64,000 nucleotides of DNA. It comes from Candidatus Latescibacterota bacterium. GTDB taxonomy: Bacteria; Latescibacterota; UBA2968; UBA8231. Of this stretch, positions 1 through 16,912 are shown in pieces. Positions within the stretch are counted from its first letter, which is position 1. Each line of letters starts with the position of its first letter. The stretch is from positions 2,208,001-2,272,000 of the forward strand of contig CBDETY010000003.1 in NCBI GenBank assembly GCA_965243025.1. The letters are read 5' to 3'. A program made the position numbers and the translations under genes. The notes under the pieces are model-generated. The model made no database searches and was not told the origin of the DNA. It was given only the letters and a program-made list of their open reading frames with translations.

Positions 1-2826
1 GGCGATCCCCTGCCCGGGGCTACCGTCACCTTCACGGTCACCACCGGTGAAGGCCAGCTCAGCGGCCGGTTCACGGTGGAGCGGGCCACGACCGATGCCA
101 GCGGCCGGGCCGAGCTGACCCTTACCCTGGGTCCCCTCCCCGGTCCGAACATCGTGGGCCTGTCCCTCGGCTGGCGCGAGCTGGCCGCGTTTACCGCCGA
201 TGGGGTGGGCGTCGCCGTGGCCGAGCTGGAAGGGGACTACCGGACCTGGCATCTCCCCGAGGGGGCGACGGCGCGCCTGGGCAAGGGCGCCCTGGAACGG
301 GGCGACCGGGCCGTGGCTCTTTCGGCGGACGGCCGCTGTCTGGCCGTGGCCAGCGGCATCGGGGTGTGGCTGTACGAGGCGGCCACGTCCCGGGCCCTGG
401 CGCTGCTGCCGACGGAAAGTGCGGTCCATTCGGTGTCGTTCTCCCTCGACGGCACCCTGGCCGCGGGGTTGGACAACGGCCGGGTCGAGCTGTGGGAGGT
501 GGAGACCGGGGAGCGGATCGGCACGCTGAGGCAGGCGGATCGTCCGGTCTCCTCGGTGGCTTTTTCGCGGGATGGGGCAACCCTGGCGGCCGGGTCGGGT
601 GATCAGGTCATCAAGGTGTGGGACGTAGAGACCTGGCGTGAGGTGGGCACTTGGGAAGTGCTGCGTGAAGGCAATGTCCTTTCTCCACTTTCGGTTGCCT
701 TTTCACCGGACGGGACGAGGCTGGTATCGGGGTTCCAGGACGGCACGGTCCGGCTGTGGGACGTGGCAACGCAAGAGGAGGTGGCAACGCTGGAGGGGCA
801 CACGGATCGGGTCGCTTCGGTGTCGTTCTCCCCCGATGGCGCCCTGCTGGCTTCGTCCGGGGGGAGTAATGATGATCCCACGGTCCGGCTGTGGGACGCG
901 GCCACACAGGCACAGATCGCGACTTTGGAAGGGCATACGTTTGGGGTCAACTCGGTAGCGTTTTCTCCGCCCGACGGCGCCACCCTCGCTTCGGCGTCGG
1001 ATGACGGTACGGTCCGCCTGTGGGACGTGGCCACACACCAGGAGACCGCCCTCTTGGACGAGCATGGGGCCCCGGTCCATTCGGTGACGTTTTCCCCCGA
1101 TGGGGCCACCCTCGCTTCCAGTGGTGCCGACGGCACGGTGCTGCTGCGGGACCTGGAGACCGACAATGCCGCCCGTCTCTCCGGCCACGGGTCTTTGTGG
1201 TCGATGGCGCTCGCGCGAGATGGCGTCCTTCTGGCTTCGGGGTTCGGGGACGGCACGGTGCGGCTGTGGGACGCGGCGACGCGGACACGGATCGCCACCC
1301 TCGTGGGACATACGTCGCTGGTCACTTCCGTGTCGATTTCTTCCAACGGCGGCCTCCTGGCCTCCGGGGCCTTGGATGGCAGGGTCAGCCTGTGGGACAT
1401 AGCGACGAGGACCAATACCGCTACCCTCGAGGCACATGGTCCGGTCAGGTCAGTGGCCTTTTCGCCCGACGGCGCCCTCCTGGCTTCCGGGTCGCAGGGT
1501 GGCAGGGTCAGCATGTGGGACGTGGGGACGCAAACGCAGGTCGCCACGCTGTGGGGCACGTCCGATGTCAATTCGGTGGCTTTTTCTCCGCCCGATGGAG
1601 CCCTTCTGGCTTCGGCCGGAGGCTTTGGAGACAAGACAGTCAAGCTGTGGGACGTGGAGACTCGTGACCTGATTGGCACCCTGGAAGGTCATGAGAGGGA
1701 GGTCGGTGGGGTGACCTTTTCCCCCGATGGCAAGACTCTTGCCTCGGGGTCGTGGGATGGCACGGTGAAGCTGTGGGACGTGGCGACACGCACTCCTGTC
1801 GCCACTCTGCAGGATGTGAATACAGTCCGTTCGGTGGTCTTCTCGCCCGATGGCGCCCTCCTTGCTTCCGGGTCACTTGGTGGCACGGTCAGCCTGTGGG
1901 ACGTGCCGACGAAGAGAAGAACCGCCACCCTGGAGGGGCATAGGGATCAGGTCCATTCGGTGGCTTTTTCGGGCGACGGCGCTACTCTGGCCTCCGGGGC
2001 CAGGGATGGCACCATGCTGCTGTGGGACATGCAGCTGGTTCTGCCGCACCCCCGCACCCTGGCCAAGCTTTCCGGCGATGAGCAGCAGGGATTGCCCGCT
2101 GCTCAACTGGCGGAGCCGTTCGTCGTTTCGGTGCTGGACCAGAACGGGGCCCCGCTTCCCGGGGCGGAAGTCACTTTCACAGTTACCGCCGGCGAGGGAA
2201 CGCTCTCCCCAACCACCGCCACCACCGGTGAGAACGGCCGCGCCGCCAGCACCTTGACCCTGGGCAGCCTGCCTGGGACCAGTACCGTCACCGTATCGGT
2301 GGCCGGCCTCGACCCCGTGACCTTCACCGCCACCGCGGAAGCCACCGCCGACTTCGACGGCGACGGCGCGGTCAGCTTCTCCGACTTCTTTCTGTTCGCC
2401 GACGCATTCGGCGGCAGCGACCCCCGCTTCGACCTCGACGGCAGCGGCAGCGTCGACTTCGCCGACTTCTTCCTCCTGGCCGACTACTTCGCCGATCCTG
2501 CCCGGGGCAAGCTGCTGGCCCTTGCCCGGGAGAGGATCGGCCTGCCCGACGGCCCTCAGCTTCGGCAGAACGCCCCCAACCCCTTCAACAGCGAGACCGT
2601 CATCTCCTGGTTCCTGCTGCGGCCGGGTCCGGCGCAAGTGGAGGTGTTCGCCCTGACCGGGCAGCGGGTGGCGGTCTTGCACCAAGGACCGAAGAAGGCG
2701 GGCGTGCACCGAGTGCACTGGGACGGGGGTGACGACGATGGCCGCCCACTTGCCAGCGGCGTCTACCTGTACCGCCTTTCGACCGCCGAGGCTGTGCAGA
2801 CGCGGAAGCTGACCCTGCTGCGGTGA
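1..2826 (+). CDS. 5'-truncated large surface/secreted protein: Ig-like (Big-1-like) segments, ~14 WD40 repeats, EF-hand/dockerin-like pair, C-terminal FlgD-Ig/T9SS-like sorting domain
   Basis: The frame is open from base 1 (GDPLPGATVTFTVTTGEGQLSG..), so the true start lies upstream. Repeated GH..V.SV.FSPDG.LASG.DGTV.LWDV units; DFDGDGAVSFSDF / DLDGSGSVDFADF loops; C-terminal QNAPNPFNSETVI...WDG.DDDGRPLASGVYLYRL...RKLTLLR. Confidence 0.9.
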   Translation, partial: GDPLPGATVTFTVTTGEGQLSGRFTVERATTDASGRAELTLTLGPLPGPNIVGLSLGWRELAAFTADGVGVAVAELEGDYRTWHLPEGATARLGKGALERGDRAVALSADGRCLAVASGIGVWLYEAATSRALALLPTESAVHSVSFSLDGTLAAGLDNGRVELWEVETGERIGTLRQADRPVSSVAFSRDGATLAAGSGDQVIKVWDVETWREVGTWEVLREGNVLSPLSVAFSPDGTRLVSGFQDGTVRLWDVATQEEVATLEGHTDRVASVSFSPDGALLASSGGSNDDPTVRLWDAATQAQIATLEGHTFGVNSVAFSPPDGATLASASDDGTVRLWDVATHQETALLDEHGAPVHSVTFSPDGATLASSGADGTVLLRDLETDNAARLSGHGSLWSMALARDGVLLASGFGDGTVRLWDAATRTRIATLVGHTSLVTSVSISSNGGLLASGALDGRVSLWDIATRTNTATLEAHGPVRSVAFSPDGALLASGSQGGRVSMWDVGTQTQVATLWGTSDVNSVAFSPPDGALLASAGGFGDKTVKLWDVETRDLIGTLEGHEREVGGVTFSPDGKTLASGSWDGTVKLWDVATRTPVATLQDVNTVRSVVFSPDGALLASGSLGGTVSLWDVPTKRRTATLEGHRDQVHSVAFSGDGATLASGARDGTMLLWDMQLVLPHPRTLAKLSGDEQQGLPAAQLAEPFVVSVLDQNGAPLPGAEVTFTVTAGEGTLSPTTATTGENGRAASTLTLGSLPGTSTVTVSVAGLDPVTFTATAEATADFDGDGAVSFSDFFLFADAFGGSDPRFDLDGSGSVDFADFFLLADYFADPARGKLLALARERIGLPDGPQLRQNAPNPFNSETVISWFLLRPGPAQVEVFALTGQRVAVLHQGPKKAGVHRVHWDGGDDDGRPLASGVYLYRLSTAEAVQTRKLTLLR

Positions 2827-3004
2827 GCCCGGCAAACCTGGATCTACGGTTTGAAAGCCATGAAGGCGAACAGCCTCATGGGGTGGATACGCTTCGCTCG
2901 ATGGTACGTCGATCGGCGGCCAAGCACCTCCGCCTGACGCCGTTTGCACCAGTGATCGTAAAGTGACCGGCAGCACAGGGGGGACTGACCCGAAAGAGGA
3001 CGCC

Positions 3005-3913
3005 ATGGGGCGCTGGTGGGTTTATCAGGGAGAGCGTTTCCCCCTGTTGAGGCACGGGCCGTTGATCCTCGCCTTCAGTTTCAGCGCCGTCTCTTTCTCC
3101 TGGATGCTGCGCTCCCCCGGAGGATGGCCCGACCCGTTGTCGGTGGTGGTCGCCTTCGCCTCCTGTCTGGTCTTCTTCCTGCAACTGCGCATCGCCGACG
3201 AGTTCAAGGACTTCGAAGAGGATGCGCGCTATCGGCCCTACCGCCCGGTACCCCGAGGTCTCGTAACCCTCCGGGAGCTGGCCGGCCTCTTCGCGATCGC
3301 GGGGGCTCTGCAGCTGGGCCTCGCCCTCTGGCTTGACCCGCGGCTTCTCGTCCTGCTGCTCGTCACCTGGATCTACTTCACCCTAATGAGCAAGGAGTTC
3401 TTTGTCGCAAGGTGGCTGCGCGGCAAACACCTGCTCTACATGGTCACCCACATGGCCATCATGCCGCTCATCGACCTCTACGCCACCAGCACCGACTGGC
3501 TGGTCTTCCAGGGCCATCCTCCATCCGGACTGTTCTGGTTCCTGCTTGCCAGCCTCTTCAACGGCATGGTGATCGAGATCGGCCGCAAGATTCGCAGTCC
3601 CCGGGATGAAGAGGAGGGGGTGGCCACCTATTCCGAGGTGTGGGGCCGGAGGCGGGCGGTGGGCGCGTGGTGGCTTGTGCTGGGGCTGGCGCTCGGTTGC
3701 GCCTGCCTGGCCGCGCGCCCCATCGATTTTGTCCCACCGCTGGCCATTGCTCTCGGGGCGTCCTTGGGCGGTGCGGTGCTCATCGGAGCTCGCTTCCTGC
3801 GGCGCCAGACTCCCGGAGCGGGGAACTGGATCGAGAACTGGTCCGGGGTCTGGACGCTGGTGTTCTATCTCAGCCTGGGTCCGGCACCGCTTCTGTGGCG
3901 GGAAATCGGATGA
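3005..3913 (+). CDS. UbiA-superfamily prenyltransferase-like membrane protein
   Basis: ATG at 3005 after GAGGA; multiple TM helices; Asp-rich RIADEFKDFEEDARYRPYRPVPRG motif and a second DEEEGVATYS motif. Confidence 0.75.
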   Translation: MGRWWVYQGERFPLLRHGPLILAFSFSAVSFSWMLRSPGGWPDPLSVVVAFASCLVFFLQLRIADEFKDFEEDARYRPYRPVPRGLVTLRELAGLFAIAGALQLGLALWLDPRLLVLLLVTWIYFTLMSKEFFVARWLRGKHLLYMVTHMAIMPLIDLYATSTDWLVFQGHPPSGLFWFLLASLFNGMVIEIGRKIRSPRDEEEGVATYSEVWGRRRAVGAWWLVLGLALGCACLAARPIDFVPPLAIALGASLGGAVLIGARFLRRQTPGAGNWIENWSGVWTLVFYLSLGPAPLLWREIG

Positions 3914-6618
3914 CCTTCGTTCTCTCGTCTTCGGACGGCGTCGATCCCGGCCGCATGGGAGGCAAGGCCGCCGCCCTCTCCCTGCTGGCCGGCACGGGGG
4001 TGGAAATCCCCGCATGGTTCGTGATCACGCCGGGCGCTTTCGAAGCCAGTCTCTCGCCCGCCCAGCGCCGCGCCCTGCTCCGGGCCGAAGGGCAGGAAGA
4101 GCTCGAGGGGTTCTTCGACCGGGTCTCGCCGGCGCCCCAGGTCCTGGATGAAGTAGAGAAAGGCTTCGCAACGCTGGGCGGCGATACCCGCTTCGTCGCG
4201 GTGCGCTCGTCCGGTGTACAGGAGGACGGAGTCGAGCACTCCTTTGCCGGCCAGTTCGAGAGTTATCTGTCGGTTACCCGGAAGCGCCTGCCGGCCCGGA
4301 TCGCCGACGTATGGCGATCCGGTTTCAGCGAACGCCTCCTCGCCTACCGCCGGGAGAACGACCTCGAAGGGCTGCCGCAAGCTCCGGCCGTGCTGGTGCA
4401 GGCGATGGTCGACAGCGAGACCGCCGGAGTCGCCTTCAGCGCCGACCCGGTGACGGGACGCCGCTCGGTGGCGGTGGTGTCGACCCTCTACGGCCTGGGA
4501 ACGGCGCTGGTCGGCGGGGACGCCGACGCGGATACCTATCGCGTCCACTTCGATGGCACGATCCTCGAGCGGGACATTGCCGCGAAGAGCCTGGCGCACC
4601 GGCCGGCCCCGGACAGTCCGGAAGGGTTCGCGGCGCAAGAGGTCGCGGAGCCCGCTGCCTCCAGGCCGGCGCTCACCGACGGGGAGGCAGCGCGCATCGC
4701 CGAGCTCGCCCGCCGCGCCGAGCGCCACTTCGGGCGGCCGCAGGACATCGAATGGGCGATGCGCGGCGGCGAGATCTTCCTCCTCCAGTCGCGGCCGATC
4801 ACCTCTCTGGCCGCGAGGCCGGATCCCGACGGGGTCCGCACCATCTGGGACAACTCGAACATCGTAGAGAGCTACAGCGGTATCACCACCCCCTTGACCT
4901 TCAGCTTCGCCCTTCACGCCTACGATGGGGTCTACCGCGAGTTCTGCCGCCTCCTGGGCGTGACCAAGGGCAAGATCGCGGCCAACGACCTCACCTTCCG
5001 CCGCATGCTCGGGCTTGTGCGAGGCCGCGTCTACTACAACCTCCTCAACTGGTACCGCGTCATCGCCCTGCTCCCCGGCTACAGCTTCAACCGCCGCTTC
5101 ATGGAACAAATGATGGGGGTGCGGGAGAGTCTTCCCGACGAGATCACCGCCGCCGCATCCAGCGCTTCCCCGCCGGAGCGTCTTCTCGATCTGCTCCGAC
5201 TGGGCCGCACTGTTGCGGGAATGGTCGTCAACCACGTGCGCCTGCCCGGCATGACCGCCCGGTTCGAGGAGCGACTGGATCGTGCCCTTGCTCCTCGGGA
5301 GCCACCACTGGAGGCGATGCGGCTCGACCAGCTGACCGCCGACTATCGTGCCCTGGAGTCGAATCTTCTGACGCGCTGGGACGCACCGTTGATCAACGAC
5401 TTCTACGCCATGGTCTTCTTCGGCGTTCTGGGCCGCCTCACGTCCAGGTGGTGCTGCGCCGGGAAGGACGAACAGGGCTCTCTGTACAACGACCTGGTGT
5501 GCGGCCAGGGGGACATGATCAGCGCCGAGCCCGCAAGGCGCATCGTCGAGATGGCCACCGTCGCAGCGCGCCACTCCGAGCTGACCGAGGTCCTCTGCCA
5601 GGGGGCGGCCAAGGCGGCCGAGAAGGCCTTGCGCCGGCACGAGGAGCTGGAACGACTCTACGACGATTATCTCGCCACCTTCGGCGATCGCTGCCTCGAA
5701 GAGCTCAAGCTCGAGTCGACTACTCTTCTCGACGATCCCGAGCCCCTGCTGCGCTCGATCGGGCACGCCGCCGCACGACTGGCGCGCGGTCAGACCTTCG
5801 ATTCCGGTCATCAGTCGGCCGTGCGGCAGAGGGCGGAAGAGAGGGTGCGGCGGGCCCTTGCGCGGCGCCCCTTGAGGCGCGCCGTCTTCGCCTGGGTTTT
5901 GCGCAACGCCCGCCAGCGGGTGCGGGACCGGGAGAATCTGCGGTTCGAGCGTACCCGCATCTTCGGCCGCGCCCGCAGGATCTTCCTCGAGGTCGGGCGC
6001 AGACTGTTCGCCGAGGGAGTCCTCGACGACCCGCGCGACGTCTTCTACCTCGAGCGCGAGGAAATCCTGGCGTACGCCGAAGGGGCCTCGCCTTGTGACG
6101 ACCTGCGCGGTCTCGCCATCGCGCGCCGCCGCGCCTTCGAGCGCTACGCAGAGCACGAGGCTCCGGCCAACCGCTTCGAGACCTTCGGCGCCCCCTACAT
6201 CGCCAACAGCTGCGCGGGGAGCGGCATGGGGACGGGAGAGCAGGGTGAAGCCGGCGAAGAAGACGTACTCCGCGGCCTCGGTTGTTGCCCGGGAGTCGTG
6301 CGGGGCCGGGCGCGCGTGATCCGCGATCCTCGCGGGGCGGAGCTGCAACAAGGGGAGATAATGGTGGCGGAGCGCACCGACCCGGGATGGATCATGCTCT
6401 TCCCGGCCGCCGCCGGCATTCTGGTCGAGCGCGGCAGCCTGCTCTCACACTCGGCGATCGTGGCCCGAGAGATGGGAATTCCCGCCATCGTCTCCATCGC
6501 CGGCCTCACTGCCCGAATCAGGAGCGGTCACTGGATCGAGATGGACGGCTCGGCCGGCCGGGTGAGCCTGAACCCGCCGCATCCTGAAGCCGGCCCGGAG
6601 CAGGGAACCCGTCCATGA
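3910..6618 (+). CDS. PEP-synthase/rifampicin-phosphotransferase-like enzyme (ATP-grasp, central substrate domain, His-swivel domain)
   Basis: ATG at 3910 overlaps the upstream TGA (ATGA). GGKAA, AVRSS..ED...SFAGQFES, QDIEWA, LQSRPIT, and C-terminal GSLLSHSAIVARE with the catalytic His. Confidence 0.88.
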   Translation: MTFVLSSSDGVDPGRMGGKAAALSLLAGTGVEIPAWFVITPGAFEASLSPAQRRALLRAEGQEELEGFFDRVSPAPQVLDEVEKGFATLGGDTRFVAVRSSGVQEDGVEHSFAGQFESYLSVTRKRLPARIADVWRSGFSERLLAYRRENDLEGLPQAPAVLVQAMVDSETAGVAFSADPVTGRRSVAVVSTLYGLGTALVGGDADADTYRVHFDGTILERDIAAKSLAHRPAPDSPEGFAAQEVAEPAASRPALTDGEAARIAELARRAERHFGRPQDIEWAMRGGEIFLLQSRPITSLAARPDPDGVRTIWDNSNIVESYSGITTPLTFSFALHAYDGVYREFCRLLGVTKGKIAANDLTFRRMLGLVRGRVYYNLLNWYRVIALLPGYSFNRRFMEQMMGVRESLPDEITAAASSASPPERLLDLLRLGRTVAGMVVNHVRLPGMTARFEERLDRALAPREPPLEAMRLDQLTADYRALESNLLTRWDAPLINDFYAMVFFGVLGRLTSRWCCAGKDEQGSLYNDLVCGQGDMISAEPARRIVEMATVAARHSELTEVLCQGAAKAAEKALRRHEELERLYDDYLATFGDRCLEELKLESTTLLDDPEPLLRSIGHAAARLARGQTFDSGHQSAVRQRAEERVRRALARRPLRRAVFAWVLRNARQRVRDRENLRFERTRIFGRARRIFLEVGRRLFAEGVLDDPRDVFYLEREEILAYAEGASPCDDLRGLAIARRRAFERYAEHEAPANRFETFGAPYIANSCAGSGMGTGEQGEAGEEDVLRGLGCCPGVVRGRARVIRDPRGAELQQGEIMVAERTDPGWIMLFPAAAGILVERGSLLSHSAIVAREMGIPAIVSIAGLTARIRSGHWIEMDGSAGRVSLNPPHPEAGPEQGTRP

Positions 6619-7730
6619 GCACCGAAGCGGCGGCGCAGGCCGATTTCTCGTTCATCCGCTACGCGCAGTGCTGGGAGGACGCCGACGTTCTCCTCGAGGC
6701 GCTCGAGGTTGGCGAAGGGGACGTCTGCCTGTCGATCGCTTCGGCGGGAGACAACTCGCTCTCACTCCTGTCCCGGGGTCCGGCGCGCGTGATTGCCGTC
6801 GACATGAACCCGGCGCAGCTCGCCTGTCTCGCGTTGCGCGTCGCCGCCTACCGCGTGCTCGGGCACGGCGAACTCCTGCAACTCGTCGGCTCGCGGGAAT
6901 GCGCCGACCGGGAAGCTCTCTACAGACGCTGCCGCGGCGCCCTCGAGACCAGGGCTCGCGGCTTCTGGGATGCCCGCCCGGAGCTCATCCGGGCCGGCAT
7001 CGGCGGCGCCGGAAAGTTCGAGCGTTACTTCGCCGCTTTTCGCACAAAGGTATTGCCGTGGATCCATCCCCGGCATCGAGTCGACCGGCTCCTGGCCGGC
7101 GGCACCCTGCAGGAACGCCGGCGTTTCTACGCCAGGAGCTGGGACAACCGGCGCTGGGGTCTCCTCTTCCGGCTCTTTTTCTCCCGCTTCGCAATGGGCA
7201 GGATGGGCCGCGATCCGGCTTTCTTCCGCTACGTGGAGGGCTCGGTGGCGCAGCGCATCCTGTCGCGGGCCAGGCACGCGGCCACCGAGCTCGACCCCGC
7301 GGCCAACCCCTACCTCCAGTGGATTCTCACCGGCCGCCACACCACCGCCCTGCCCCACGCCCTGCGCGAGGAGAATTTCGACGCCATCAGGGAAAACCTG
7401 AACCGGCTCGAATGGCACCGCATGTCGATCGAGGAACTCCTCGCCTCCGAGCCCGGGCTTCGCTTCGATCGCTGCAACCTGAGCGACATCTTCGAATACA
7501 TGTCAGACGAGAGCTTTCACCGGCTGCTCGCCACCCTGGCCGACCGCGCCCGCAGCGGGGCCCGCTTCGCCTACTGGAACATGCTGGTGCCCCGCAGCCG
7601 TCCACCGCAGCTGGCGCACGCTCTCACTCCGCGCAGCGAGCTTGCCGAGCGGCTTCACCTTCAGGACAAGGCGTTCTTCTACAGCCGGTTCGTCGTCGAG
7701 ACGGTAGAGGGGGAGGCAGGGCCGCGATGA
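6615..7730 (+). CDS. DUF3419 / BtaA-like SAM-dependent (3-amino-3-carboxypropyl) transferase family protein
   Basis: RYAQCWEDADV N-terminus, SAM-binding IASAGDN and VDMNPAQ, LSDIFEYM, DKAFFYSRF; ATGA overlap with the upstream gene. Confidence 0.8.
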   Translation: MSTEAAAQADFSFIRYAQCWEDADVLLEALEVGEGDVCLSIASAGDNSLSLLSRGPARVIAVDMNPAQLACLALRVAAYRVLGHGELLQLVGSRECADREALYRRCRGALETRARGFWDARPELIRAGIGGAGKFERYFAAFRTKVLPWIHPRHRVDRLLAGGTLQERRRFYARSWDNRRWGLLFRLFFSRFAMGRMGRDPAFFRYVEGSVAQRILSRARHAATELDPAANPYLQWILTGRHTTALPHALREENFDAIRENLNRLEWHRMSIEELLASEPGLRFDRCNLSDIFEYMSDESFHRLLATLADRARSGARFAYWNMLVPRSRPPQLAHALTPRSELAERLHLQDKAFFYSRFVVETVEGEAGPR

Positions 7731-9100
7731 CACTCACCGCCACCCTCCTCGCCATGGCGGTCCTCCTCGCCGCGTTTGCGGTGCTCCTGGCTGGTCTCAA
7801 GGCGATTGAGAAGAGAAGCCGTCTCCATCCCGAACTCCTGCGCAAGGGCATGCACGTCCTCATGGGGATGGTCCTCCTTCCGTTGCCCTGGGTCTTCGAC
7901 CGCGCCTGGCCGGTGATCGTGCTGGCAGTCCTCGCCTGCGGCGCCATGGTGGCGGCGCGCGCCAGCCGCCGCCTGCGCAGCGGCATCGGAACGGTGATGG
8001 GCGGAGTCGGGCGGAACAGCCTCGGCGAAATCTACTTCCCGATCGCCGTGTGTCTCCTCTTCCTCCTCAGCCGCGGCGACTGGCTGCTTTACGTCGTTCC
8101 CATCCTCATGCTGGCGCTGGCGGACGCCGTCGCCGCCCTGGTGGGCCTTCGCTACGGGTTGTCGCAGTACCGGACTTCGGACGGCCACAAGAGCCTCGAG
8201 GGTTCTCTCGCATTCTTCCTGGTGGCCTTCTTCAGCGCCCACCTTCCCCTCCTGCTCCTGACCGGCACGGGACGCGCCGAGGCCGTCCTGATCGCCGCGA
8301 TCCTCGCCCTCCTCCTCATGATGCTGGAGTGCGTGGCGTGGCGCGGACTGGACAACCTCTTCATCCCCCTGGGGGCCCACGCTTTCCTGCGCCTCTACCT
8401 GGGTGCAGAAACCGGGCTTCTCCTCTTTCACCTGATGGTTGCCGTGCTCCTGACGGTTTTTGCACTGGCCTGGAGGCCGCGCAGGAAGCTCGACGACAGC
8501 GCGCTCATCGGATGCGCGCTCTTCGGCTACGCCGCCTTCACGCTGGGCGGTTGGCTGTGGCTTTCCGGACCGGTGGTCTACTTCCTCACCCTGATCCTGG
8601 TCTGGCCGCGCTCCCCTGCGGATCGTCCGCACACCGTGTATGCCATGCTCGCGTCTTCGGCCGCGGGCCTGTGCTGGCTGTTCGCCCACTCCATCACCGG
8701 GAAGGGGTGGCTCCTGATCCCCTTCACCGGCTCCTTCGCCGCCCAGCTCACCCTGTACGGGGTCGCGAGGTTCGGCCACCTCCCCGACCGTGGACCGCGT
8801 TCCCTGCGCCTGCTCGGCGACATAGGTCTCGGCTGGCTTCTCATTCACTGCCCGACCCTGCTCATCGCTTTCGCCTATGGTCTCGCCGACCTGGCGTCCC
8901 ACGCTCCCGTACTGGATGTCCCCGGTCTCTTCAGCGACCTCGGTCTCGGCCTGTTGGCCACCAGTATGGTTGCGGTGGTCTTCTACCTGCTGGTGCCGCG
9001 AATCTACGGTCCACCCATGCGGGAGGCCGCCATCAACCCCACCTTCGCCGCCCTCGGCATTGTGGCGTCGGTCGTGGCGGCGCTGCGCTGGCTGGGCTGA
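7727..9100 (+). CDS. CTP-dependent dolichol/phytol kinase-like membrane protein with C-terminal membrane extension
   Basis: ATG at 7727 (ATGA overlap); PELLRKGMH, LALADAVAALVG, HKSLEGSLAFF and GLDNLFIP motifs; highly hydrophobic. Confidence 0.8.
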   Translation: MTLTATLLAMAVLLAAFAVLLAGLKAIEKRSRLHPELLRKGMHVLMGMVLLPLPWVFDRAWPVIVLAVLACGAMVAARASRRLRSGIGTVMGGVGRNSLGEIYFPIAVCLLFLLSRGDWLLYVVPILMLALADAVAALVGLRYGLSQYRTSDGHKSLEGSLAFFLVAFFSAHLPLLLLTGTGRAEAVLIAAILALLLMMLECVAWRGLDNLFIPLGAHAFLRLYLGAETGLLLFHLMVAVLLTVFALAWRPRRKLDDSALIGCALFGYAAFTLGGWLWLSGPVVYFLTLILVWPRSPADRPHTVYAMLASSAAGLCWLFAHSITGKGWLLIPFTGSFAAQLTLYGVARFGHLPDRGPRSLRLLGDIGLGWLLIHCPTLLIAFAYGLADLASHAPVLDVPGLFSDLGLGLLATSMVAVVFYLLVPRIYGPPMREAAINPTFAALGIVASVVAALRWLG

Positions 9101-9149
9101 GGGGGAGAAGGTGGTCCGGCAGCGTCGGCAGCAGGGAGAGGCCAGGAGA

Positions 9150-9272
9150 GTGAAGACGACCCTTGCCCTGTTTGCCCGGCTGCCGGTGGCCGGGAGCCTC
9201 GCCCTCCTCGCGGCGGACGCGAGTGCACAGTCGATCGATGACGCAAGGTCCGCCTACGCAGAGGGCCGCTAG
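9150..9272 (+). pseudogene. 40-codon remnant: signal peptide plus a few residues of a secreted protein
   Basis: GTG after AGGAGA; VKTTLALFARLPVAGSLALLAADASA/QSIDDARSAYAEGR then TAG. Confidence 0.4.
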
Positions 9273-9310
9273 CCGCGCCGGTTGCAAACCTTCCACACAG
9301 TCGAGGAGAG

Positions 9311-10309
9311 ATGAGCCCTTTTTCCATTGTCGAACGGGTCGAGGATCTGGCGTCGCTGCGGGCCGGTCCGGTGGAGCCGTTGCAGGCCGAGGACTTCCTG
9401 CTCACAGCGCCCTCCCGCCATCTCGCATTGCAGGACGCGACGGGCGGGTTGCTCGCCCGTTGTTCGCTGTGGAGGGCCCGCGACGCCCATGGCGAGCCGA
9501 CCACGGCCGGCCGGATAGGACACTATGCCGCTCTCGATGCCGGTGCCGGCAGGGCGCTGCTGGGACAGGCCTCGGACTGGCACCGGTCCGAGGGGTGTGA
9601 ACGGGTCATCGGTCCGATGGACGGCTCCACCTGGAACCGCTACCGAATGCTGACCGAGCGCGGGACGGAACCGGTTTTCTTCCTGGAGCCCGACAATCCC
9701 GACGACTGGCCCCGGCACTTCGCCGACGCCGGATTCGCGCCGCTGGCGACCTATGTCTCGGCGCTCAATTCAGACCTCGACCAGTTCGACCCGCGTTCCG
9801 ACCGGCGGCGGTCCGAACTCGAACGGAACGGCATCACCATCCGGACCATCGACGTCGAGCGCTTCGACGCCGACCTCGCCGCCATTCACGAGCTGTCGCT
9901 GGCGGCGTTCGCGGGCAATTTCCTCTACAGCCCCATCGCGCTCGAGACCTTCGTTGCCTCCTACACTCCGATCCGGCCCTGTCTCGTTCCCGAGCTCGTC
10001 CTTCTCGCGGAGCAGAGCGGGCAACCCGTCGGCTTCATCTTCGGCATCCCGGATCTCATGGAGCCGGCGCGAGGCGAGCCCCGGCGCACGGTGGTCCTCA
10101 AGTCGCTGGCGGTGCATCCGTCCTGCGCTGGAAACGGCCTCGGCGGTCTGCTGGTGGACGATTGTCAGCGGGCGGCGAGGAAGCTCGGGTTCGAGCGCGC
10201 CATTCACGCCCTGATGCACGAAAGCAACCTGTCGCGGAGGATTTCGGCTCGCTACGGAACCGTTATCCGCCGCTACACTCTCTACGAGAAATCGCTGGTC
10301 CGGGAATGA
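9311..10309 (+). CDS. GNAT-family N-acyltransferase (two-lobed type)
   Basis: RBS GAGGAG; GRIGHY, IGPMDGSTWNRYR, FFLEPDNP, and acetyl-CoA motif AVHPSCAGNGLGGLL. Confidence 0.8.
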   Translation: MSPFSIVERVEDLASLRAGPVEPLQAEDFLLTAPSRHLALQDATGGLLARCSLWRARDAHGEPTTAGRIGHYAALDAGAGRALLGQASDWHRSEGCERVIGPMDGSTWNRYRMLTERGTEPVFFLEPDNPDDWPRHFADAGFAPLATYVSALNSDLDQFDPRSDRRRSELERNGITIRTIDVERFDADLAAIHELSLAAFAGNFLYSPIALETFVASYTPIRPCLVPELVLLAEQSGQPVGFIFGIPDLMEPARGEPRRTVVLKSLAVHPSCAGNGLGGLLVDDCQRAARKLGFERAIHALMHESNLSRRISARYGTVIRRYTLYEKSLVRE

Positions 10310-11919
10310 ACATCAGCCAGGTCCTGATCGATCGGGCCGCCGAGCGGCCCGGGGAGCCCGCGATCGTCGAGGCGGTGGGAGGGGGGACGCGCTCCCTCAC
10401 CTTCGGTCAGATGGCGGAACGCTCGGCGAGAGCGGCCGCACTCCTGCACTCGGCCAAGCTCCACGAGGGGGATCGGATCCTCGTATTCCAGCCGATGTCC
10501 ATAGAGCTCTACGTCGTCCTCCTGGCGATCTTCCGTCTCGGCCTGGTGGCCACCGTGCTGGATCCCTCGGCCGGACGCCGGCACATCGAGCAGTGCTGCA
10601 GCATCGCCCGTCCAAGGGCGTTCGTCGGCCCCGCCCGGGCACACATCCTGCGGTTCGCCTGTCGAGGTCTGCGTCGCATCGAACGGCACTTCGCAACCGC
10701 GGGCTGGGCCCCTGGTGCGACCCGGTGGTCCAGGCTCGAACGCCTCGAGCCCCTGAAACCGGTCACCGCCTGCGATTCGTCGCACGACGCCCTTCTCACC
10801 TTTACCAGCGGCAGCACCGGAGTGCCGAAGGCGGTGGTCCGCAGCCACGGTTTCCTGCTGGCGCAGCACGAGGTCCTGGCCGAGTCCATCGAACTCGAGC
10901 CCGGCGAAGTCGACCTCGCCACGCTGCCGATCTTCGCGCTCGCCAATCTGGCCTCGGGCGTGACGACGGTCATACCACGGTGCGACCTCCGTCGTCCCGG
11001 TTTCGTGGAGCCGGCCCCGATTCTCGAGCAACTCAGGCGTCATCGCGTCACCCGGACCGCCGGATCCCCGGCGCTGTACGCCAGGCTGCTTCAGGGAGCT
11101 CGCGCCGCAGGGGAGGCAGGAAGCGAGAGCGGTGAGACGAGCCTCGGCACGCTCGAGAAGCTCTACACCGGCGGCGCTCCCGTCTTTCCCCGCCTCCTGC
11201 AGCAGCTCCGTTCGGCGATGCCGCAGGGCCGGGTGATCGCAGTCTACGGCTCGACCGAGGCAGAGCCCATCGCTCACCTCGATTGGGACGAGGCGGAACC
11301 CGCCGACCTGGACGCCATGTATGCCGGCAAAGGACTTCTGGCCGGAAGGCCGGTGCGCCAGATCGAGTTGCGCATTCTGGACAACCGCTGGGGGGAGGCT
11401 CTTCCGGAATTGAAGGCAAGGGAATTCGCCGAACGCGCGTTGCCTGCGGAGCGGGGCGGCGAGATCGTGGTGAACGGTCCCCATGTGCTCGCCGGCTACC
11501 TGGGCGGAATCGGCGACGAGGAAACCAAGTTCCTGGTCGAAGGGGAGGTCTGGCACCGCACCGGCGACGCCGGCTGCCTTGACGCCGCAGGCCGACTGTG
11601 GCTCCTGGGACGCGCCGGGGCGGTCATTCGGGACGAACGCGGCACGATCTATCCCTTCGCCACCGAGTGCGCGGCAAGCCAGCTGGCCTGGATCGAAAGG
11701 AGCGCTCTCGCCGGGCACAACGGCGAGCGTCTCCTGGCGGTGCAGCTGGGGGCACGGGCGCCTGCGGACGCGGAGCGGCGCGTGAAGAAGACCCTAAGCT
11801 GGGCACAACTCGACCGGGTCGTGCGGTTGGCGCGAATACCGGTCGACCGCCGCCACAACGCGAAAGTCGACTACCCCAAACTGAAGAAGGAACTCGAACG
11901 CCATGGCAACTGCCGATGA
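10306..11919 (+). CDS. ANL-superfamily adenylating enzyme (acyl-CoA ligase / OleC-like)
   Basis: ATG at 10306 (ATGA overlap); LTFTSGSTGVPK, VYGSTEAEPI, WHRTGDAG, PVDRRHNAKVDY. Confidence 0.88.
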   Translation: MNISQVLIDRAAERPGEPAIVEAVGGGTRSLTFGQMAERSARAAALLHSAKLHEGDRILVFQPMSIELYVVLLAIFRLGLVATVLDPSAGRRHIEQCCSIARPRAFVGPARAHILRFACRGLRRIERHFATAGWAPGATRWSRLERLEPLKPVTACDSSHDALLTFTSGSTGVPKAVVRSHGFLLAQHEVLAESIELEPGEVDLATLPIFALANLASGVTTVIPRCDLRRPGFVEPAPILEQLRRHRVTRTAGSPALYARLLQGARAAGEAGSESGETSLGTLEKLYTGGAPVFPRLLQQLRSAMPQGRVIAVYGSTEAEPIAHLDWDEAEPADLDAMYAGKGLLAGRPVRQIELRILDNRWGEALPELKAREFAERALPAERGGEIVVNGPHVLAGYLGGIGDEETKFLVEGEVWHRTGDAGCLDAAGRLWLLGRAGAVIRDERGTIYPFATECAASQLAWIERSALAGHNGERLLAVQLGARAPADAERRVKKTLSWAQLDRVVRLARIPVDRRHNAKVDYPKLKKELERHGNCR

Positions 11920-12062
11920 CAGCTGGACAAAAAAGGCTGTTCCTTGAGAGAGAGCGCTTGTGAAGCGGTTGGGGGAGGGCACGAGTTTTCAAGTGGGCAG
12001 GTGGAATCCAGGATTGGAGCTTTAGTCGATTTTTTATTTGGAGTCAGCCTCTGGGCCTGCTG

Positions 12063-12452
12063 ATGTGCAAAGGGGCCCGCAGTGCTGACCTGGAAGGAAA
12101 GGTGGCGATCTATCACTGGTCGATCGACCAGAAACGGATGAGCGAGAATCCCCGTACGGAAATTCCTGTGGTTGAATTCTCAGGACATATTCCGGAAACG
12201 GAGTTTCAGCCGTCCGGAATCGAGCGGCACCCTGCCTCGGGGAACTACTTCGTCGTGGCTGCCCGTCAGCGCGCCATAACCGAGATCACCCCCGACGGGC
12301 AGGTCCTGGCCGTCAGGCAGTTTTCCGCGCAATGGCATCGCCAAGTTGAAGGCATCACTTTCGCGGCGGACAACACCCTGATCGTTGCCGATGAAGGCGC
12401 GGGTGGAAAGGCCGGAATAACGGTTTACCCGATAAAGAAACCCGGCAAGTAG
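12063..12452 (+). pseudogene. C-terminal fragment of an SdiA-regulated/YjiK-like beta-propeller protein
   Basis: FQPSGIERHP...RQVEGITF..DNTLIVADEG pattern; no N-terminal half upstream; lower GC. Confidence 0.55.
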
Positions 12453-12551
12453 CTGTTTCAGGGCAGCTACTGGTCTGGGCGGTCCGGATGGGCGTTCAAG
12501 TGCGGGGCTCTTCGGCCGAACACCGATTGTAACGGCCGCTTATTTCGAGGA

Positions 12552-12855
12552 TTACTCCGGGCGAAGCTGCTGCAGGAAACCGTCGAGACCCTCGTCGAAA
12601 CGCTCGATGAGCTCCGGGACCTTGTCGGCGATCTCCCCGACCTTGAGGGGATCGAGGTCGGCGGTGTAAGCGTGGCGGAACAGGTGCCTGAAACGGCGCA
12701 GTTCGTCGAGAATTCCCGCGGTCTCAAGAGACAGCAGGGCGGGCCGGATGCCCTCGATCCGCAGCTTCATGCGCCGCAGCAGGCCGGTGTGGCAACTCTC
12801 CCCTTCAACCCGGTTCTCGAAGGTCCCGGCAACCTCTTCGAACAGCTGCTCGAAA
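12552..12855 (-). pseudogene. N-terminally deleted HEPN (HepT-like) RNase toxin
   Basis: The frame upstream of the ATG at 12770 reads FEQLFEEVAGTFENRVEGESCHTGLLRRM...; Rx4H motif in RFRHLFRHAY; no proper start or N-terminal helices. Confidence 0.7.
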
Positions 12856-13185
12856 GACTTCCAGCCCCGCTTCGGTGAACGAATCGGCCGCGGGATGGCG
12901 GTCGAGGTCGATGACGTCGACCTGCCTGGCGGTCGCCTCCTCCAAGTCCTTCATCACCTCCAGAACGGCATGCGAACAGCCCCGGACAGCGACGTCGACG
13001 TCCGATGAGCTGCGCCATGCCCCCGGCGTCTTGAGTGAACCGACGATCCAGGCGGCCTCGATTCCATGCTTGCGGCGGATCCGCCTCAAAACCTCCTGCA
13101 CCCGTTCGAGCAGCGCGCCGCGCTCCTGCTCCAGCTTCAACCGCCGGCTCCTGAGGGCCTCGTCCAGTCTGCTCGTGTCGAACAT
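12805..13185 (-). CDS. Minimal nucleotidyltransferase (MNT) antitoxin, with a read-through C-terminus
   Basis: RBS GGAGG; IVGS...SSSDVDVAV...QVDVIDL motif. Confidence 0.8.
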   Translation of the reverse strand: MFDTSRLDEALRSRRLKLEQERGALLERVQEVLRRIRRKHGIEAAWIVGSLKTPGAWRSSSDVDVAVRGCSHAVLEVMKDLEEATARQVDVIDLDRHPAADSFTEAGLEVFRAAVRRGCRDLREPG

Positions 13186-13254
13186 GGAACCTCCGGCAGA
13201 TGAGCTTACATCAATATCAATAAGGTACGGGGAATGCGGGTACTCCCGCGATGC

Positions 13255-14871: not shown

Positions 14872-15002
14872 GGCTGCTCGGACCTCCTGTCTTCCGGATT
14901 CTTGAGTATCCCCCGGGGAACCGGTAGGTTCGCCCCGCCGCCCCCGGCCGGAGGCGGATGGCAGAATGTAGGACCGATACCTGGGGGATGTAACCTTTGG
15001 CG

Positions 15003-15605
15003 ATGGACCGGAACTCCCGGAGGTTGTGGGTAGGCAACGATGTCGTCTACCGGCACGATCCCCACATAGCCGCCCACCACCTCAAGCGGCGTTTCGTCGA
15101 CCGGGTCTGCAGCCCCGGAGAGGCCGAACGCGTGCGCGCGAGCCGGGAGCCCGGCCTCCTGCTGTGGTCGCTGTGGGCGGCCAAGGAGGCCGCGTACAAG
15201 GCGGTCGTCAAGCTGCGGCCCGGGACCCCGTTCGCGCACCGGCGCTTCGTCGTCGCCGAGACCCTGGCAGGAGTCCGCTACGAAAATCTGCTGCTGTCTC
15301 TCGAGGTGGAGGGGAACGAGGAGTGGGTGCACGCCGTCGCCTGCACCGGGGAGACCGCCGTCCTGTGGTCAGTGGAGCGGATGGAAGACGGGGCGGACCA
15401 GAAGGTAGCGGTCCGCGCCCTCGCCCTCGAAGCGGTGGCGGCGCGTTTCGACCTGCCGCGAGACCGCCTCGAGATCGTCCGCCCCCCGAATGCCCGGGGC
15501 CGCCCCGGCCCTCCGCAGCTGCTCGTGGACGGCCTGGCGACTGGAGTCGACATCAGCCTGTCGCACGACGGCCCGTTCGTCGCCTGTGCCGCAGTCCGCA
15601 GCTAG
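15003..15605 (+). CDS. 4'-phosphopantetheinyl transferase
   Basis: VGNDVV, WSLWAAKEAAYKA and DISLSHDG motifs; adjacent to the ACP cluster. Confidence 0.85.
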   Translation: MDRNSRRLWVGNDVVYRHDPHIAAHHLKRRFVDRVCSPGEAERVRASREPGLLLWSLWAAKEAAYKAVVKLRPGTPFAHRRFVVAETLAGVRYENLLLSLEVEGNEEWVHAVACTGETAVLWSVERMEDGADQKVAVRALALEAVAARFDLPRDRLEIVRPPNARGRPGPPQLLVDGLATGVDISLSHDGPFVACAAVRS

Positions 15606-15750
15606 CAACTGCGCCCCGGTTCCATCTGAATCCGGCCTTCGGGTGCATCCTGAGGAGTCGCGGATTCAATCCATGCCGGGTCATCCGTAAGATCTTCCCT
15701 CGATTCCGGCACGCGGCTGCCAAGGTTTCTCCGATTTGGCGGGAAGCCCC

Positions 15751-16572: not shown

Positions 16573-16630
16573 GTAGTCACGGGTGAACGGGGGGTAGGGC
16601 CGGCGGGGCCCGCCTTGGCGGCCTCGGGGA

Positions 16631-16876: not shown

Positions 16877-16912
16877 TGCTGCGATCCTTTGTGCGTTCTG
16901 TTGGCGGCGACG

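Follow-up and report, generated by a model that had tools for sequence, protein, structure and literature searches.

Organisation of the six-gene locus

The window, i.e. the whole analysed DNA stretch of 64,000 nucleotides, carries a co-directional set of six genes on the + strand, spanning positions 3005-11919 in the ORF layout. The genes (g1 to g6), the spacer between two of them and the surrounding segment are arranged as follows.

2848-11930, + strand: acquired segment, with 92-93% nucleotide identity to two same-family genomes and unrelated flanks
3005-3913, + strand: g1, UbiA-superfamily integral membrane transferase, 302 aa
3910-6618, + strand: g2, ATP-dependent phosphotransferase of RPH architecture (ATP-grasp, central and His swivel domains), 902 aa
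6615-7730, + strand: g3, SAM-dependent enzyme of the DUF3419/BtaA family, putative 3-amino-3-carboxypropyl transferase, 371 aa
7727-9100, + strand: g4, polytopic membrane protein with a CTP-transferase-superfamily-like N-terminal half, 457 aa
9101-9310, + strand: strain-specific g4-g5 spacer of 210 nt, containing a 41-codon ORF remnant
9311-10309, + strand: g5, predicted tandem-GNAT N-acyltransferase, 332 aa
10306-11919, + strand: g6, adenylate-forming (ANL) acyl-activating enzyme, 537 aa

The first-pass annotation had reported ATGA overlaps of start and stop codons at positions 3910, 6615, 7727 and 10306, and each of these four-base overlaps was found exactly there. The fifth junction, between g4 and g5, has no overlap; here the spacer separates a g1-g4 block from a g5-g6 block. 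According to the alignments the spacer is absent from loci L002, L090 and L091, and one metagenome contig runs from position 9093 straight to 9314 without it. Part of the spacer (9145-9282) resembles DNA located elsewhere in a same-genus genome (71% identity). The set is preceded by a WD40-repeat gene and followed by a small SdiA-regulated-like ORF, and, as had been claimed, neither a btaB methyltransferase nor ole genes occur among the window neighbours.

A promoter scan of the operon region returned no promoter-like site, and a terminator scan gave two terminator-like sites, both intragenic and together fewer than in shuffled sequence. Contigs from the RNA-library run X20 were found on parts of all six genes; they were mostly 90-95% alike and DNA carry-over is possible, hence they are not proof of transcription. 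Altogether, the six genes form a real, intact and translationally coupled operon that looks co-transcribed. A convergent fatty-acid-synthase-like cluster downstream (13255-22376) was rejected as an operon partner, as its proteins occurred in 0 of 80 related loci and are native to the genus.

Distribution and acquisition of the cluster

Cluster-like genes were carried by at least 223 candidate genome stretches. When it was checked if the genes stay together elsewhere, all six were present in 44 of the 80 related loci, a recurrence that points to a grouping far beyond chance, and in 30 of the 36 loci with full flanks. The set appeared under at least 11 phylum labels, which come from MAGs, so that mis-binning would weaken the cross-phylum claim. 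Only two gene orders were observed among the loci, and these are circular permutations of each other. Some loci contained partial sets, e.g. g3-g4-g5 or g4-g5-g6; thus the six steps need not be one linear pathway. The genes g5 and g6 were adjacent in all related loci having them. The cassette moves between genomes and phyla as one unit of two modules, g1-g4 and g5-g6. All six genes are under purifying selection, with dN/dS values of 0.17-0.29 against L002 and 0.09-0.22 against L003; the sequence L093:9934-11004:- was left out as a reference because of internal stop codons. Flank genes at other loci included a cytochrome P450 (in eight), PLD-like enzymes (in four) and MMPL/sterol-sensing transporters (in three). 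A fusion of a PAP2 phosphatase with a P450 was found on L039, and an ORF of the same BLAST cluster on L038.

In the genome studied here, the operon is a horizontally acquired island. L090 aligns to window positions 2848-9093 and 9310-11930 and L091 to 2942-9093 and 9314-11912, and the flanks of the carrier relatives are unrelated. Two same-genus genomes match the window at 12533-20000 with 85-91% identity, and within 2830-12050 over 138 nt only; both congeners retain the right flank without the operon. None of the 40 nearest relatives had a g4 homologue, and across the phylum one was detected in 5 of 168 genomes, the present genome being one of the five. The g2 tree places the window copy, with 100% support, inside a set of copies whose MAGs carry the labels Gemmatimonadota, Rhodothermota and Bacteroidota. 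No mobile-element genes were seen in the L090 flanks, and only in L030 was a transposase located upstream. Close relatives of the stretch occur in runs labelled as sponge metagenomes.

An HMG-CoA-reductase-family gene precedes the UbiA gene in 41 of the 80 related loci and is present in 26 of the 30 complete full-context clusters. The usual form of the cluster is a seven-gene one with the reductase gene heading the operon. In this genome no such gene adjoins g1, and none was detected in the whole genome (protein query and PF00368; genome 96% complete); five other complete clusters are likewise without it. In 12 of the 80 loci the g6 ligase lies directly before the reductase gene. Among five reductase-carrying genomes, neither a mevalonate kinase above cut-off (0/5) nor an HMG-CoA synthase (0/5) was found. 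Grossi et al. [quoted passage not shown] By that criterion, the reductase of the cluster fits a putative fatty-acyl-CoA reductase, which would mean a fatty alcohol and not isoprenoid supply. Since the gene is absent from this genome, the fatty-alcohol reading is here borrowed from other genomes.

The product had previously been described as prenyl-modified, which became doubtful in the light of the putative reductase in these loci and of the five carrier genomes without mevalonate enzymes. In an isoprenoid version, g4 and g2 would salvage a free prenol (phytol, geranylgeraniol or polyprenol) to the mono- and diphosphate, the UbiA enzyme would transfer it in the manner of phytol recycling in plants and cyanobacteria, and g3, g5 and g6 would add the later modifications. 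Prenyl diphosphates are the usual donors of UbiA enzymes, the names and weak DUF92 matches of the g4 homologues (see below) point in the same direction, and this genome and the five other complete clusters have no reductase and so no fatty alcohol in cis. Nevertheless, we regard this version as unlikely, if still a serious alternative: the frequency of the reductase and its tested hosts fit acyl-CoA reduction, and flank clustering revealed no isoprenoid-supply gene beside any of the 80 loci, a check that had been proposed for homologous clusters. Moreover, the window proteins are 65-82% identical to those of the reductase-bearing L003 cluster, which makes a change of substrate class unlikely.

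Family assignment of the six proteins

Pfam backed the family labels given earlier to five of the six proteins (UbiA, PPDK_N with PEP-utilizers, DUF3419, GNAT and AMP-binding), and the label of g4 was weakly backed. For g1, the match to UbiA (PF01040) scored 59.7 bits (cut-off 34.2; 3.4e-16). The sole solved structure found for g1 by sequence was that of the archaeal ether-lipid synthase DGGGPS (6M31), a UbiA-family enzyme with marginal likeness to g1 (E 0.0022), and among NCBIfam models g1 weakly matched those for chlorophyll synthase and DGGGPS. In the first Asp-rich motif, residues D65, D69, D73, R80, R84 and G85 were invariant in 35 of 35 sequences, whereas in the second only E202, G205 and T208 were invariant and the Asp at position 201 varied. 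The donors that we know of for UbiA enzymes are allylic or oxocarbenium-forming diphosphates; we know of no saturated alkyl diphosphate in this role.

For g2, Pfam returned PPDK_N (196.9 bits, 7e-58) and PEP-utilizers (83.2 bits, 9.8e-24), and no third domain at E <= 0.01 that would correspond to the PEP/pyruvate-binding TIM barrel. Its best solved relatives were 5FBS and 5HV1 (3.5e-67). The catalytic histidine, which the first-pass annotation had called intact, is indeed in place: the g2 stretch 'LLSHSAIVARE', which contains His847, lines up with the segment of Listeria RPH (5FBS) that bears the phospho-histidine, and His847 was invariant in 42 of 42 sequences. Scores against NCBIfam models were well below cut-off for RPH (NF041857, 306.8 versus 999 bits), PigC (309 versus 1300) and RedH (341 versus 1350), and slightly below it for NF004881 (798 versus 883). 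Thus, g2 has the RPH architecture with the catalytic His, but similarity to RPH does not reach equivalog level. Phosphoenolpyruvate synthase/PPDK was rejected as an identity of g2 (TIGR01418, 240 bits versus a cut-off of 740; C-terminal PEP/pyruvate-binding domain missing).

The prodigiosin ligase models were matched by g2 with E-values of 1e-101 (RedH) and 6e-92 (PigC), far under their cut-offs as given above, and the patchy, transfer-driven spread of the cluster is typical of secondary metabolism. The product might accordingly be a soluble or secreted small natural product, with g2 acting like PigC/RedH on a carbonyl or hydroxyl group for condensation and g1 prenylating the scaffold. We judge this to be very improbable, as clustering of the flanks of the 80 loci gave no conserved scaffold-forming enzyme, whether PKS, NRPS or terpene cyclase, and the accessory genes are of lipid type (MMPL, PAP2, PLD-like, acyl-CoA-reductase-like). 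Mean column identities of 45-60% across phyla (g1, g3 and g5 alignments) also suit a housekeeping-like lipid function better.

The g3 protein matched DUF3419 over residues 10-362 of 371 (249.3 bits, 9.5e-74) and is the one DUF3419 copy in the genome. Its nucleotide-binding (SAM-binding) motif was kept, with S43, A44, G45, N47 and D63 invariant in 41 of 41 sequences (mean column identity 60%). A predicted complex of g3 with g4 scored 0.00, which says nothing either way on binding. Searches for solved structures by sequence gave nothing usable for g3, g4 and g5; for g6 they returned generic ANL enzymes only.

Neither Pfam nor NCBIfam contained a match to g4. Homologues of g4 are labelled 'phytol kinase' or 'polyprenol kinase family' in their source annotation; 4 of 16 weakly matched DUF92 (PF01940; best E 3e-4), which we take to be the family that includes the phytyl-phosphate kinase VTE6, g4 itself did not, and 0 of 16 matched PF01148. 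The motif LADAVAALVG..YG..KS.EGS was invariant among the homologues. The predicted structure (pLDDT 84) gave no PDB match at E <= 0.001 in Foldseek; CdsA (4Q2G) was found with a probability of 0.96 (E 0.15) and, via VIA, CarS (5GUF) with Z 7.2 over 104 residues (115-225; rmsd 3.0, 20% identity), in both cases in a range where chance matches of helical bundles also fall. The C-terminal half, which is predicted to be an extra helical domain, matched the MgtE transmembrane domain (VIA, Z 9.4) and an ABC exporter (Z 8.6), values that helical bundles reach by chance. The model thus suggests a weak resemblance of the N-terminal half to the CTP-transferase superfamily (CdsA, CarS, polyprenol kinases). 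The earlier label, a CTP-dependent phytol/dolichol-kinase-like protein, agrees with the homologue names and the weak DUF92 and fold matches; it holds as a superfamily-level guess, as g4 fails every curated model. The protein may equally be a kinase or a cytidylyltransferase, or something else.

A GNAT domain (Acetyltransf_1) was detected in g5 at residues 228-302 (45 bits, cut-off 20.7, 1.5e-11), and its predicted structure (pLDDT 94.7) shows two GNAT folds. In Foldseek the model matched the tandem GNATs 3TT2, 7Q3A, 2WPW, glucosamine N-acetyltransferase (5KF1) and mycothiol synthase (2C27/1OZP) at 1e-15 to 1e-11. G276 and G278 of the CoA-binding loop were invariant in 40 of 40 sequences. The enzymes nearest to g5 in fold have amino sugars and inositol conjugates as substrates, which would also suit a lipid-phosphate acceptor scheme, in which g4 makes a lipid monophosphate and g1 adds a diphosphate-activated polar group, possibly activated by g2, to give a lipid-linked carrier or cell-envelope glycolipid that is then modified by g3, g5 and g6. 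The UbiA superfamily does contain such enzymes, e.g. decaprenyl-phosphate phosphoribosyltransferase, and the difficulty that an alkyl diphosphate donor would be non-allylic does not arise. However, among the 80 loci no gene for sugar activation or glycosyl transfer accompanies the cluster in a conserved manner, and g1 has its weak nearest relatives in DGGGPS and chlorophyll synthase and not in the phosphoribosyltransferase; this scheme therefore appears improbable.

The g6 protein matched AMP-binding (186.9 bits, 6.6e-55), and its best NCBIfam model was NF006754, 'fatty acid CoA ligase family' (366 bits versus a cut-off of 478). The existence of near-matching models such as NF004881 and NF006754, which shows that annotators have come across these proteins, leaves a slim chance that the pathway has already been characterised under other names or in other papers. 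The names of these models are, however, generic ('phosphoenolpyruvate synthase', 'fatty acid CoA ligase family protein'). In line with the first-pass annotation, which could match the genes to no described pathway, nothing relevant was found in the literature, most subscription journals being outside reach, under the family names, the name of the reductase or those of candidate products, and the accessible part of PMC11948995 does not name the pathway.

Proposed pathway and comparison with known systems

Two polytopic membrane enzymes, together with the lipid-type accessory genes at other loci, give the cluster a lipid-type context. We see close to an even chance that the acquired operon functions in biosynthesis and yields an amphiphilic, membrane-associated compound not yet described. 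The likeliest product would be a lipid based on a long-chain alcohol and bearing an N-acylated 3-amino-3-carboxypropyl head group; we infer every substrate in the proposed pathway from family resemblance.

The pathway would start from a long-chain alcohol, in most hosts a fatty alcohol made by the reductase heading the operon and in this genome one from another source. Activation of the alcohol, by phosphorylation or with a nucleotide, would fall to the membrane protein g4 and the RPH-type phospho-histidine enzyme g2; the earlier proposal that these two produce first a mono- and then a diphosphate for UbiA transfer is plausible. With the activated lipid, g1 would form a C-O bond to an acceptor, as DGGGPS and chlorophyll synthase do, and g3 would modify a free hydroxyl with a homoserine-type 3-amino-3-carboxypropyl group donated by SAM. 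The new amine would then be acylated by g5 with acyl-CoA made by the adjacent ligase g6. Acylation of an amine is suggested for g5 because its tandem-GNAT fold is like that of mycothiol synthase and amino-sugar N-acetyltransferases and because only g3 in the cluster introduces an amine. The outcome would be a phosphorus-poor lipid whose head group is an N-acylated amino acid.

A more specific formulation, which we consider rather unlikely in its entirety, is that a non-isoprenoid alcohol is converted by g4 and the phospho-histidine dikinase to an alkyl (di)phosphate serving as alkyl donor of the UbiA enzyme for an ether or ester bond, and that a homoserine-type head group from SAM is N-acylated to give a phosphorus-free lipid, encoded by a cassette that has spread between phyla. 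If this were true, alkyl donation by a UbiA enzyme without a prenyl group would extend to such lipids a chemistry hitherto confined to prenyl groups and the lipids of archaea.

A cassette of six to seven genes, kept nearly gene-for-gene in the phyla and candidate stretches counted above, represents a sizeable blind spot in bacterial lipid biochemistry. Should the product prove to be a lipid with an ether or ester linkage and an amino acid as head group, it would be a new lipid class for environmental lipidomics, would give DUF3419 proteins a function beyond betaine-lipid synthesis and would extend the chemistry of the UbiA and RPH families. This genome offers a clear case of recent acquisition of a whole lipid-type pathway, kept under selection without the usual reductase.

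In phytol salvage, the phytol kinase VTE5 and the phytyl-phosphate kinase VTE6 feed UbiA-family transferases (chlorophyll synthase or homogentisate phytyltransferase). The cluster would share this logic, from alcohol to monophosphate to diphosphate to O- or C-alkylation by a UbiA enzyme; g4 is weakly placed in the same broad membrane CTP-transferase superfamily, and g1 has its weak match to chlorophyll synthase. In contrast to phytol salvage, the second phosphorylating enzyme is here a soluble RPH-type phospho-histidine enzyme instead of a DUF92 kinase, the starting alcohol is more likely a fatty than an isoprenoid one, and g3, g5 and g6 are without counterpart. DGGGPS links a lipid alcohol through a C-O ether bond, a reaction to which the putative one of g1 may be likened; the first motif of g1 has the spacing DxxxDxxxD, whereas the canonical UbiA motif is NDxxDxxxD.

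The three-domain plan of ATP-grasp, central substrate domain and His swivel, with its catalytic His, is common to g2, RPH and the prodigiosin ligases PigC and RedH. Unlike in RPH, the gene sits in a lipid-type operon, and the central domain of g2 aligns with that of RPH in part only. Target-normalised TM-scores of the g5 model were 0.58-0.61 with mycothiol synthase MshD (2C27, 1OZP) and 0.59-0.63 with the tandem GNATs 7Q3A and 5KF1, although sequence identity to these proteins was merely 12-17%. The beta-lactone synthetase OleC belongs to the same ANL sub-branch as g6, and OleC models matched g6 at 2.7e-67. OleC itself was rejected as an identity of g6, with scores well under cut-off (227 versus 900 and 189 versus 850) and no oleA, oleB or oleD adjacent, which upholds the earlier statement that this is not canonical olefin synthesis. 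The fatty-alcohol module of FadD and FcrA (PMC11948995) is resembled in the pairing of the g6 ligase with the reductase gene and in the tested hosts without mevalonate enzymes; the cluster here differs in having no reductase in this genome and no wax-ester synthase.

Canonical betaine-lipid synthesis had also been set aside earlier for want of an adjacent btaB, and a BtaB-type N-methyltransferase was found neither among the window neighbours nor among the genes conserved in the flanks of the 80 related loci. With the BtaA/BtaB route to DGTS the cluster has in common the full-length DUF3419 protein g3, a member of the BtaA family with its nucleotide-binding motif kept. Its invariable partner is, however, the membrane protein g4 and not a methylase, and a GNAT follows, so that the amine is probably acylated instead of trimethylated.

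Layout and conservation of the operon

Window 3005-11919 is occupied by six plus-strand open reading frames, g1 to g6.

Operon genes with their Pfam matches
3005-3913, + strand: g1, UbiA (59.7 bits)
3910-6618, + strand: g2, PPDK_N (196.9 bits) plus PEP-utilizers mobile domain (83.2 bits)
6615-7730, + strand: g3, DUF3419 (249.3 bits)
7727-9100, + strand: g4, open reading frame without Pfam match
9311-10309, + strand: g5, GNAT (45 bits)
10306-11919, + strand: g6, AMP-binding (186.9 bits)

The ATGA start/stop overlaps that the first-pass annotation had placed at 3910, 6615, 7727 and 10306 were all exact; the g4-g5 junction has a 210-nt spacer and no such overlap. Five of its family labels (g1, g2, g3, g5 and g6) were borne out by Pfam, but the kinase label of g4 was not, since neither Pfam nor NCBIfam gave any match to this protein, even at E 10. 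NCBIfam matches of the operon proteins were below threshold and bore generic names, e.g. 'fatty acid CoA ligase family' for g6 (NF006754, 366 bits, cut-off 478).

Homologues were scanned in one genome per species with g4 alignment A1 (the window plus 15 of 120 listed matches). At least 579 stretches matched the pattern and at least 223 encode a relative; the best 80 of these were fetched with flanks of up to 10 kb, and their gene content was established by tblastn with the six proteins followed by gene ordering. The complete set co-occurs in 44 of these 80 loci, most of the incomplete ones being truncated by contig ends. Among the 36 loci with full context (at least 9 kb upstream and at least 4.5 kb downstream of g4), 30 have the full six-gene set; counted gene by gene, g3 occurs in 35, g1 in 33, g2 in 33, g5 in 32 and g6 in 32.

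Gene orders of complete clusters, best 80 of at least 223 loci (H, HMG-CoA-reductase-family gene)
H-g1-g2-g3-g4-g5-g6: 23 loci
g5-g6-H-g1-g2-g3-g4: 12 loci
g1 to g6 without H: 6 loci
g5-g6-g1 to g4 without H: 3 loci

Both orders are circular permutations of a single ring, and within these complete clusters neither the g5-g6 pair nor the g1-g4 block was ever separated. Record titles of the complete clusters name Planctomycetota, Cyanobacteria including Melainabacteria, Geobacteraceae, Nitrospirae, Gammaproteobacteria, Acidobacteriota, Gemmatimonadota, Armatimonadota/Abditibacteriaceae, Bacteroidota/Rhodothermales, Verrucomicrobiota and Latescibacterota, names that we sorted into what we take to be their phyla. 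Carriers in culture include Alkalilimnicola ehrlichii (L050), Cyanobacteria bacterium FACHB-471 (L014) and Phormidium sp. CCY1219 (L020). Purifying selection acts on all six genes, with dN/dS of 0.17-0.29 against the related locus L002 and 0.09-0.22 against L003. Reading frames, overlaps, domain matches and recurrence in other genomes together confirm the six-gene operon as first described; it is real, conserved and uncharacterised.

A divergent second cluster type was seen in L093 (G078:C1:2266000-2285900) and L042, where g3 is well kept (59-63% identity), g4 reaches 45% in L042 and 41% in L093 with a shorter frame of 357 aa, and the copies of g1, g2 and g6 show a mere 32-39%. These identities suggest a wider family of UbiA, RPH-like (rifampicin phosphotransferase-like) and ligase cassettes joined to a g3-g4 pair.

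The seventh gene and the origin of the window copy

Clustering of the flanking frames revealed an extra conserved plus-strand gene of about 440 aa in 41 of the best 80 of at least 223 loci, directly upstream of g1 in 40 of them and upstream of g3 in L042. Its protein has a full HMG-CoA_red domain (1.7e-111). This gene is absent from the window, where a WD40-repeat gene precedes g1 instead, and the genome (96% complete) contains neither the seventh-gene protein nor a PF00368 match anywhere. Besides the window, L002, L037, L048, L055, L063 and L073 are complete clusters without it. In a quick tree of g2 (42 rows), the window copy and L002 were nested, with 100% SH-aLRT, among copies having the seventh gene; its loss needs four changes on this tree, and well-supported branches force at least two. 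As reductase-less copies are still under purifying selection, the reductase is dispensable for whatever maintains the operon. Further candidate acyl reductases are encoded elsewhere in the window's genome, e.g. at G000:C3:1919479-1920510 (L082), where a 1467-aa open frame has a strong NAD_binding_4 (acyl reductase) match of 207 bits; this protein might provide fatty aldehyde or alcohol where the usual reductase is lacking, as it is here.

No g4 homologue (E <= 1e-20) was found in the 40 nearest relatives (2 of the same genus, 22 of the same family, 16 of the same class), and in the phylum as a whole 5 genomes out of 168, the window's own included, have one. Window 12533-20000 has a counterpart in both congeners (85-91% nucleotide identity), and 2830-12050 has no congener match beyond 138 nt within the g4-g5 spacer. 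Two genomes of another genus in the same family have the operon between unrelated flanks, with an unchanged gene order and 92-93% identity over window 2848-11930. In a third genome, on the L002 contig, it stands at 86-88% with its two modules, g1-g4 and g5-g6, permuted, and these flanks have no match in the window's genome. The next-closest copies (70-86% protein identity) come from MAGs, on contigs that bear the labels Gemmatimonadetes, Rhodothermales and Bacteroidota, and form with the window copy a 100%-supported clade in the g2 tree. Mis-binned contigs could inflate the phylum count of this tight clade; the absence of the operon from the congeners is independent of MAG labels. The first-pass interpretation is supported in part. 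The copy in the window is reductase-less and horizontally acquired.

The g4-g5 spacer (9101-9310) is strain-specific and holds a 41-codon frame with a signal-peptide-like start; about 138 nt of it are similar (71%) to a stretch at another place in a congener's genome, and one metagenome contig joins 9093 to 9314 with the spacer missing. It looks like the scar of a rearrangement that united the two modules. A DNA search with window 1-20000 gave 91 and 65 matches in the two congeners, most of those listed falling at 63-85% identity within the WD40-repeat gene (76-2826, + strand, 916 aa), a member of a large paralogous family. The left border of the island lacks synteny, since in one congener about 360 kb separate the best match of this gene from the conserved right flank. 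The closest relative's g6 frame (L090 13897-15351, G165) is only 484 aa long, and its alignment covers residues 1-430 of the 537-aa window protein; a truncation or frameshift may have affected the ligase in that copy. Sponge-metagenome-labelled runs contain the window stretch or close relatives, and in one metatranscriptome-library run contigs, mostly 90-95% alike, fall on parts of all six genes, which is no proof of transcription.

Downstream of the operon lies a convergent fatty-acid-synthase-like cluster that the genus has natively, both congeners having it at 85-91% nucleotide identity, and that shows no linkage to the six genes in other genomes.

Fatty-acid-synthase-like cluster and a further acyltransferase
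13255-22376, - strand, part 1: TPP-dependent enzyme, PlsC-type acyltransferase, phosphopantetheine-attachment-site protein
13255-22376, - strand, part 2: ketoacyl synthase, FabA-like dehydratase fusion (497 aa)
13255-22376, - strand, part 3: 677-aa protein with enoyl-reductase/SDR domain
29941-31803, - strand: 620-aa protein, unusual fusion of an Acyl_transf_3 membrane acyltransferase domain to ankyrin repeats

The last of these and the WD40 family are eukaryote-like repeat proteins of the window.

A proposed lipid pathway

The steps are set out here in falling order of confidence. First, g6 and g5, always adjacent and ATGA-coupled in the window, would form an acyl-activation and N-acylation module. 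The g5 protein is a tandem GNAT (model pLDDT 94.7) with an invariant CoA-binding loop, its model matching tandem GNATs including mycothiol synthase and glucosamine N-acetyltransferase at 1e-15 to 1e-11. Second, the amine for this acylation would be supplied by g3 through BtaA-like aminocarboxypropyl transfer from SAM; its DUF3419 domain is full length and the nucleotide-binding motif invariant.

Third, g4 and g2 might phosphorylate and thereby activate a long-chain alcohol, to a monophosphate and then a diphosphate, or to a CDP-alcohol. Homologues of g4 are named 'phytol kinase' or 'diacylglycerol/polyprenol kinase family' by their sources; 4 of 16 match DUF92 (best 3e-4) and none of the 16 matches PF01148. 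A language-model look-up gave a 'phosphatidate cytidylyltransferase family' cluster as a neighbour of g4 (score 0.92). Foldseek pairs the AlphaFold model of g4 (pLDDT 84) with CdsA 4Q2G at a probability of 0.96, though E is 0.15, and the model resembles CarS 5GUF with Z 7.2 (rmsd 3.0, 104 residues, 20% identity) over residues 115-225, the region that holds the invariant motif LADAVAALVG..YG..KS.EGS. We accept g4 as CTP-transferase-superfamily-like, possibly a kinase and possibly a cytidylyltransferase. The closest solved structures to g2 are Listeria rifampicin phosphotransferase 5FBS and 5HV1 (3.5e-67), with which its phospho-histidine segment aligns. The catalytic histidine, reported as intact from the sequence, is His847, invariant in all 42 aligned sequences (the window and 41 of 43 extracted g2 frames, two short ones being left out).

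Fourth, g1, which is closest, though weakly, to DGGGPS and chlorophyll synthase, could form a C-O bond from the activated lipid. We know of no saturated alkyl diphosphates among UbiA donors, which is a chemical difficulty for the pathway. A version in which a lipid phosphate serves as the acceptor appears to us quite improbable.

Last, in most host genomes the alcohol may be a fatty alcohol made by the HMGR-like reductase. According to PMC11948995, genes of the kind of FcrA, a fatty-acyl-CoA reductase of this family (Grossi et al. 2025), occur in mevalonate-pathway-free genomes and often serve pathways besides wax-ester synthesis. Five genomes with the seven-gene form (behind L050, L018, L014, L046 and L003) were searched, and none contained a mevalonate kinase above cut-off or an HMG-CoA synthase C-terminal domain; both searches were positive in control genomes. 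The seventh gene is therefore not a supply of isoprenoid precursors in these five. An isoprenoid version of the pathway, to which the 'phytol kinase' names would be congenial, is in our view unlikely.

Among the best 80 of at least 223 loci, a cytochrome P450 occurs in eight, immediately before g5 in L036, L037 and L048; L039 has a PAP2 phosphatase-P450 fusion and L038 a frame of the same BLAST cluster. MMPL/sterol-sensing-domain transporters adjoin the cluster in L002, L031 and L074, and a PLD-like enzyme precedes the reductase in four Geobacter-type loci (L018, L019, L021 and L027). All of these are lipid-handling families, and flank-ORF clustering of the 80 loci gave no PKS, NRPS, terpene cyclase, glycosyltransferase or methyltransferase conserved with the cluster. 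That the product is a small molecule instead of a lipid has, we believe, very little probability.

Comparison with known systems

Several identities were rejected. For g2, PEP synthase fails on its third domain, as Pfam found no PEP/pyruvate-binding domain (NF004881 'phosphoenolpyruvate synthase', 798 bits, cut-off 883), and RPH, PigC and RedH on scores far under the cut-offs (RPH model, 307 against 999 bits). OleC is likewise no match for g6 (227 bits, cut-off 900), and a BtaA/BtaB pair is lacking its methylase; the first-pass view that neither olefin nor canonical betaine-lipid synthesis is encoded was thus upheld. Nor is a FadD/FcrA module present in the window's genome, the reductase being absent. 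That the pathway has already been characterised elsewhere is rather improbable, as literature searches outside supplementary files returned no paper matching the gene set. The significance of the cassette is limited by its chemistry, which is inferred for all steps, and by parts that are all familiar enzyme families. As the cassette is widespread, a new lipid pathway would be directly testable. Each enzyme falls in a known superfamily, but together they correspond to none of the characterised systems that we tested or found.
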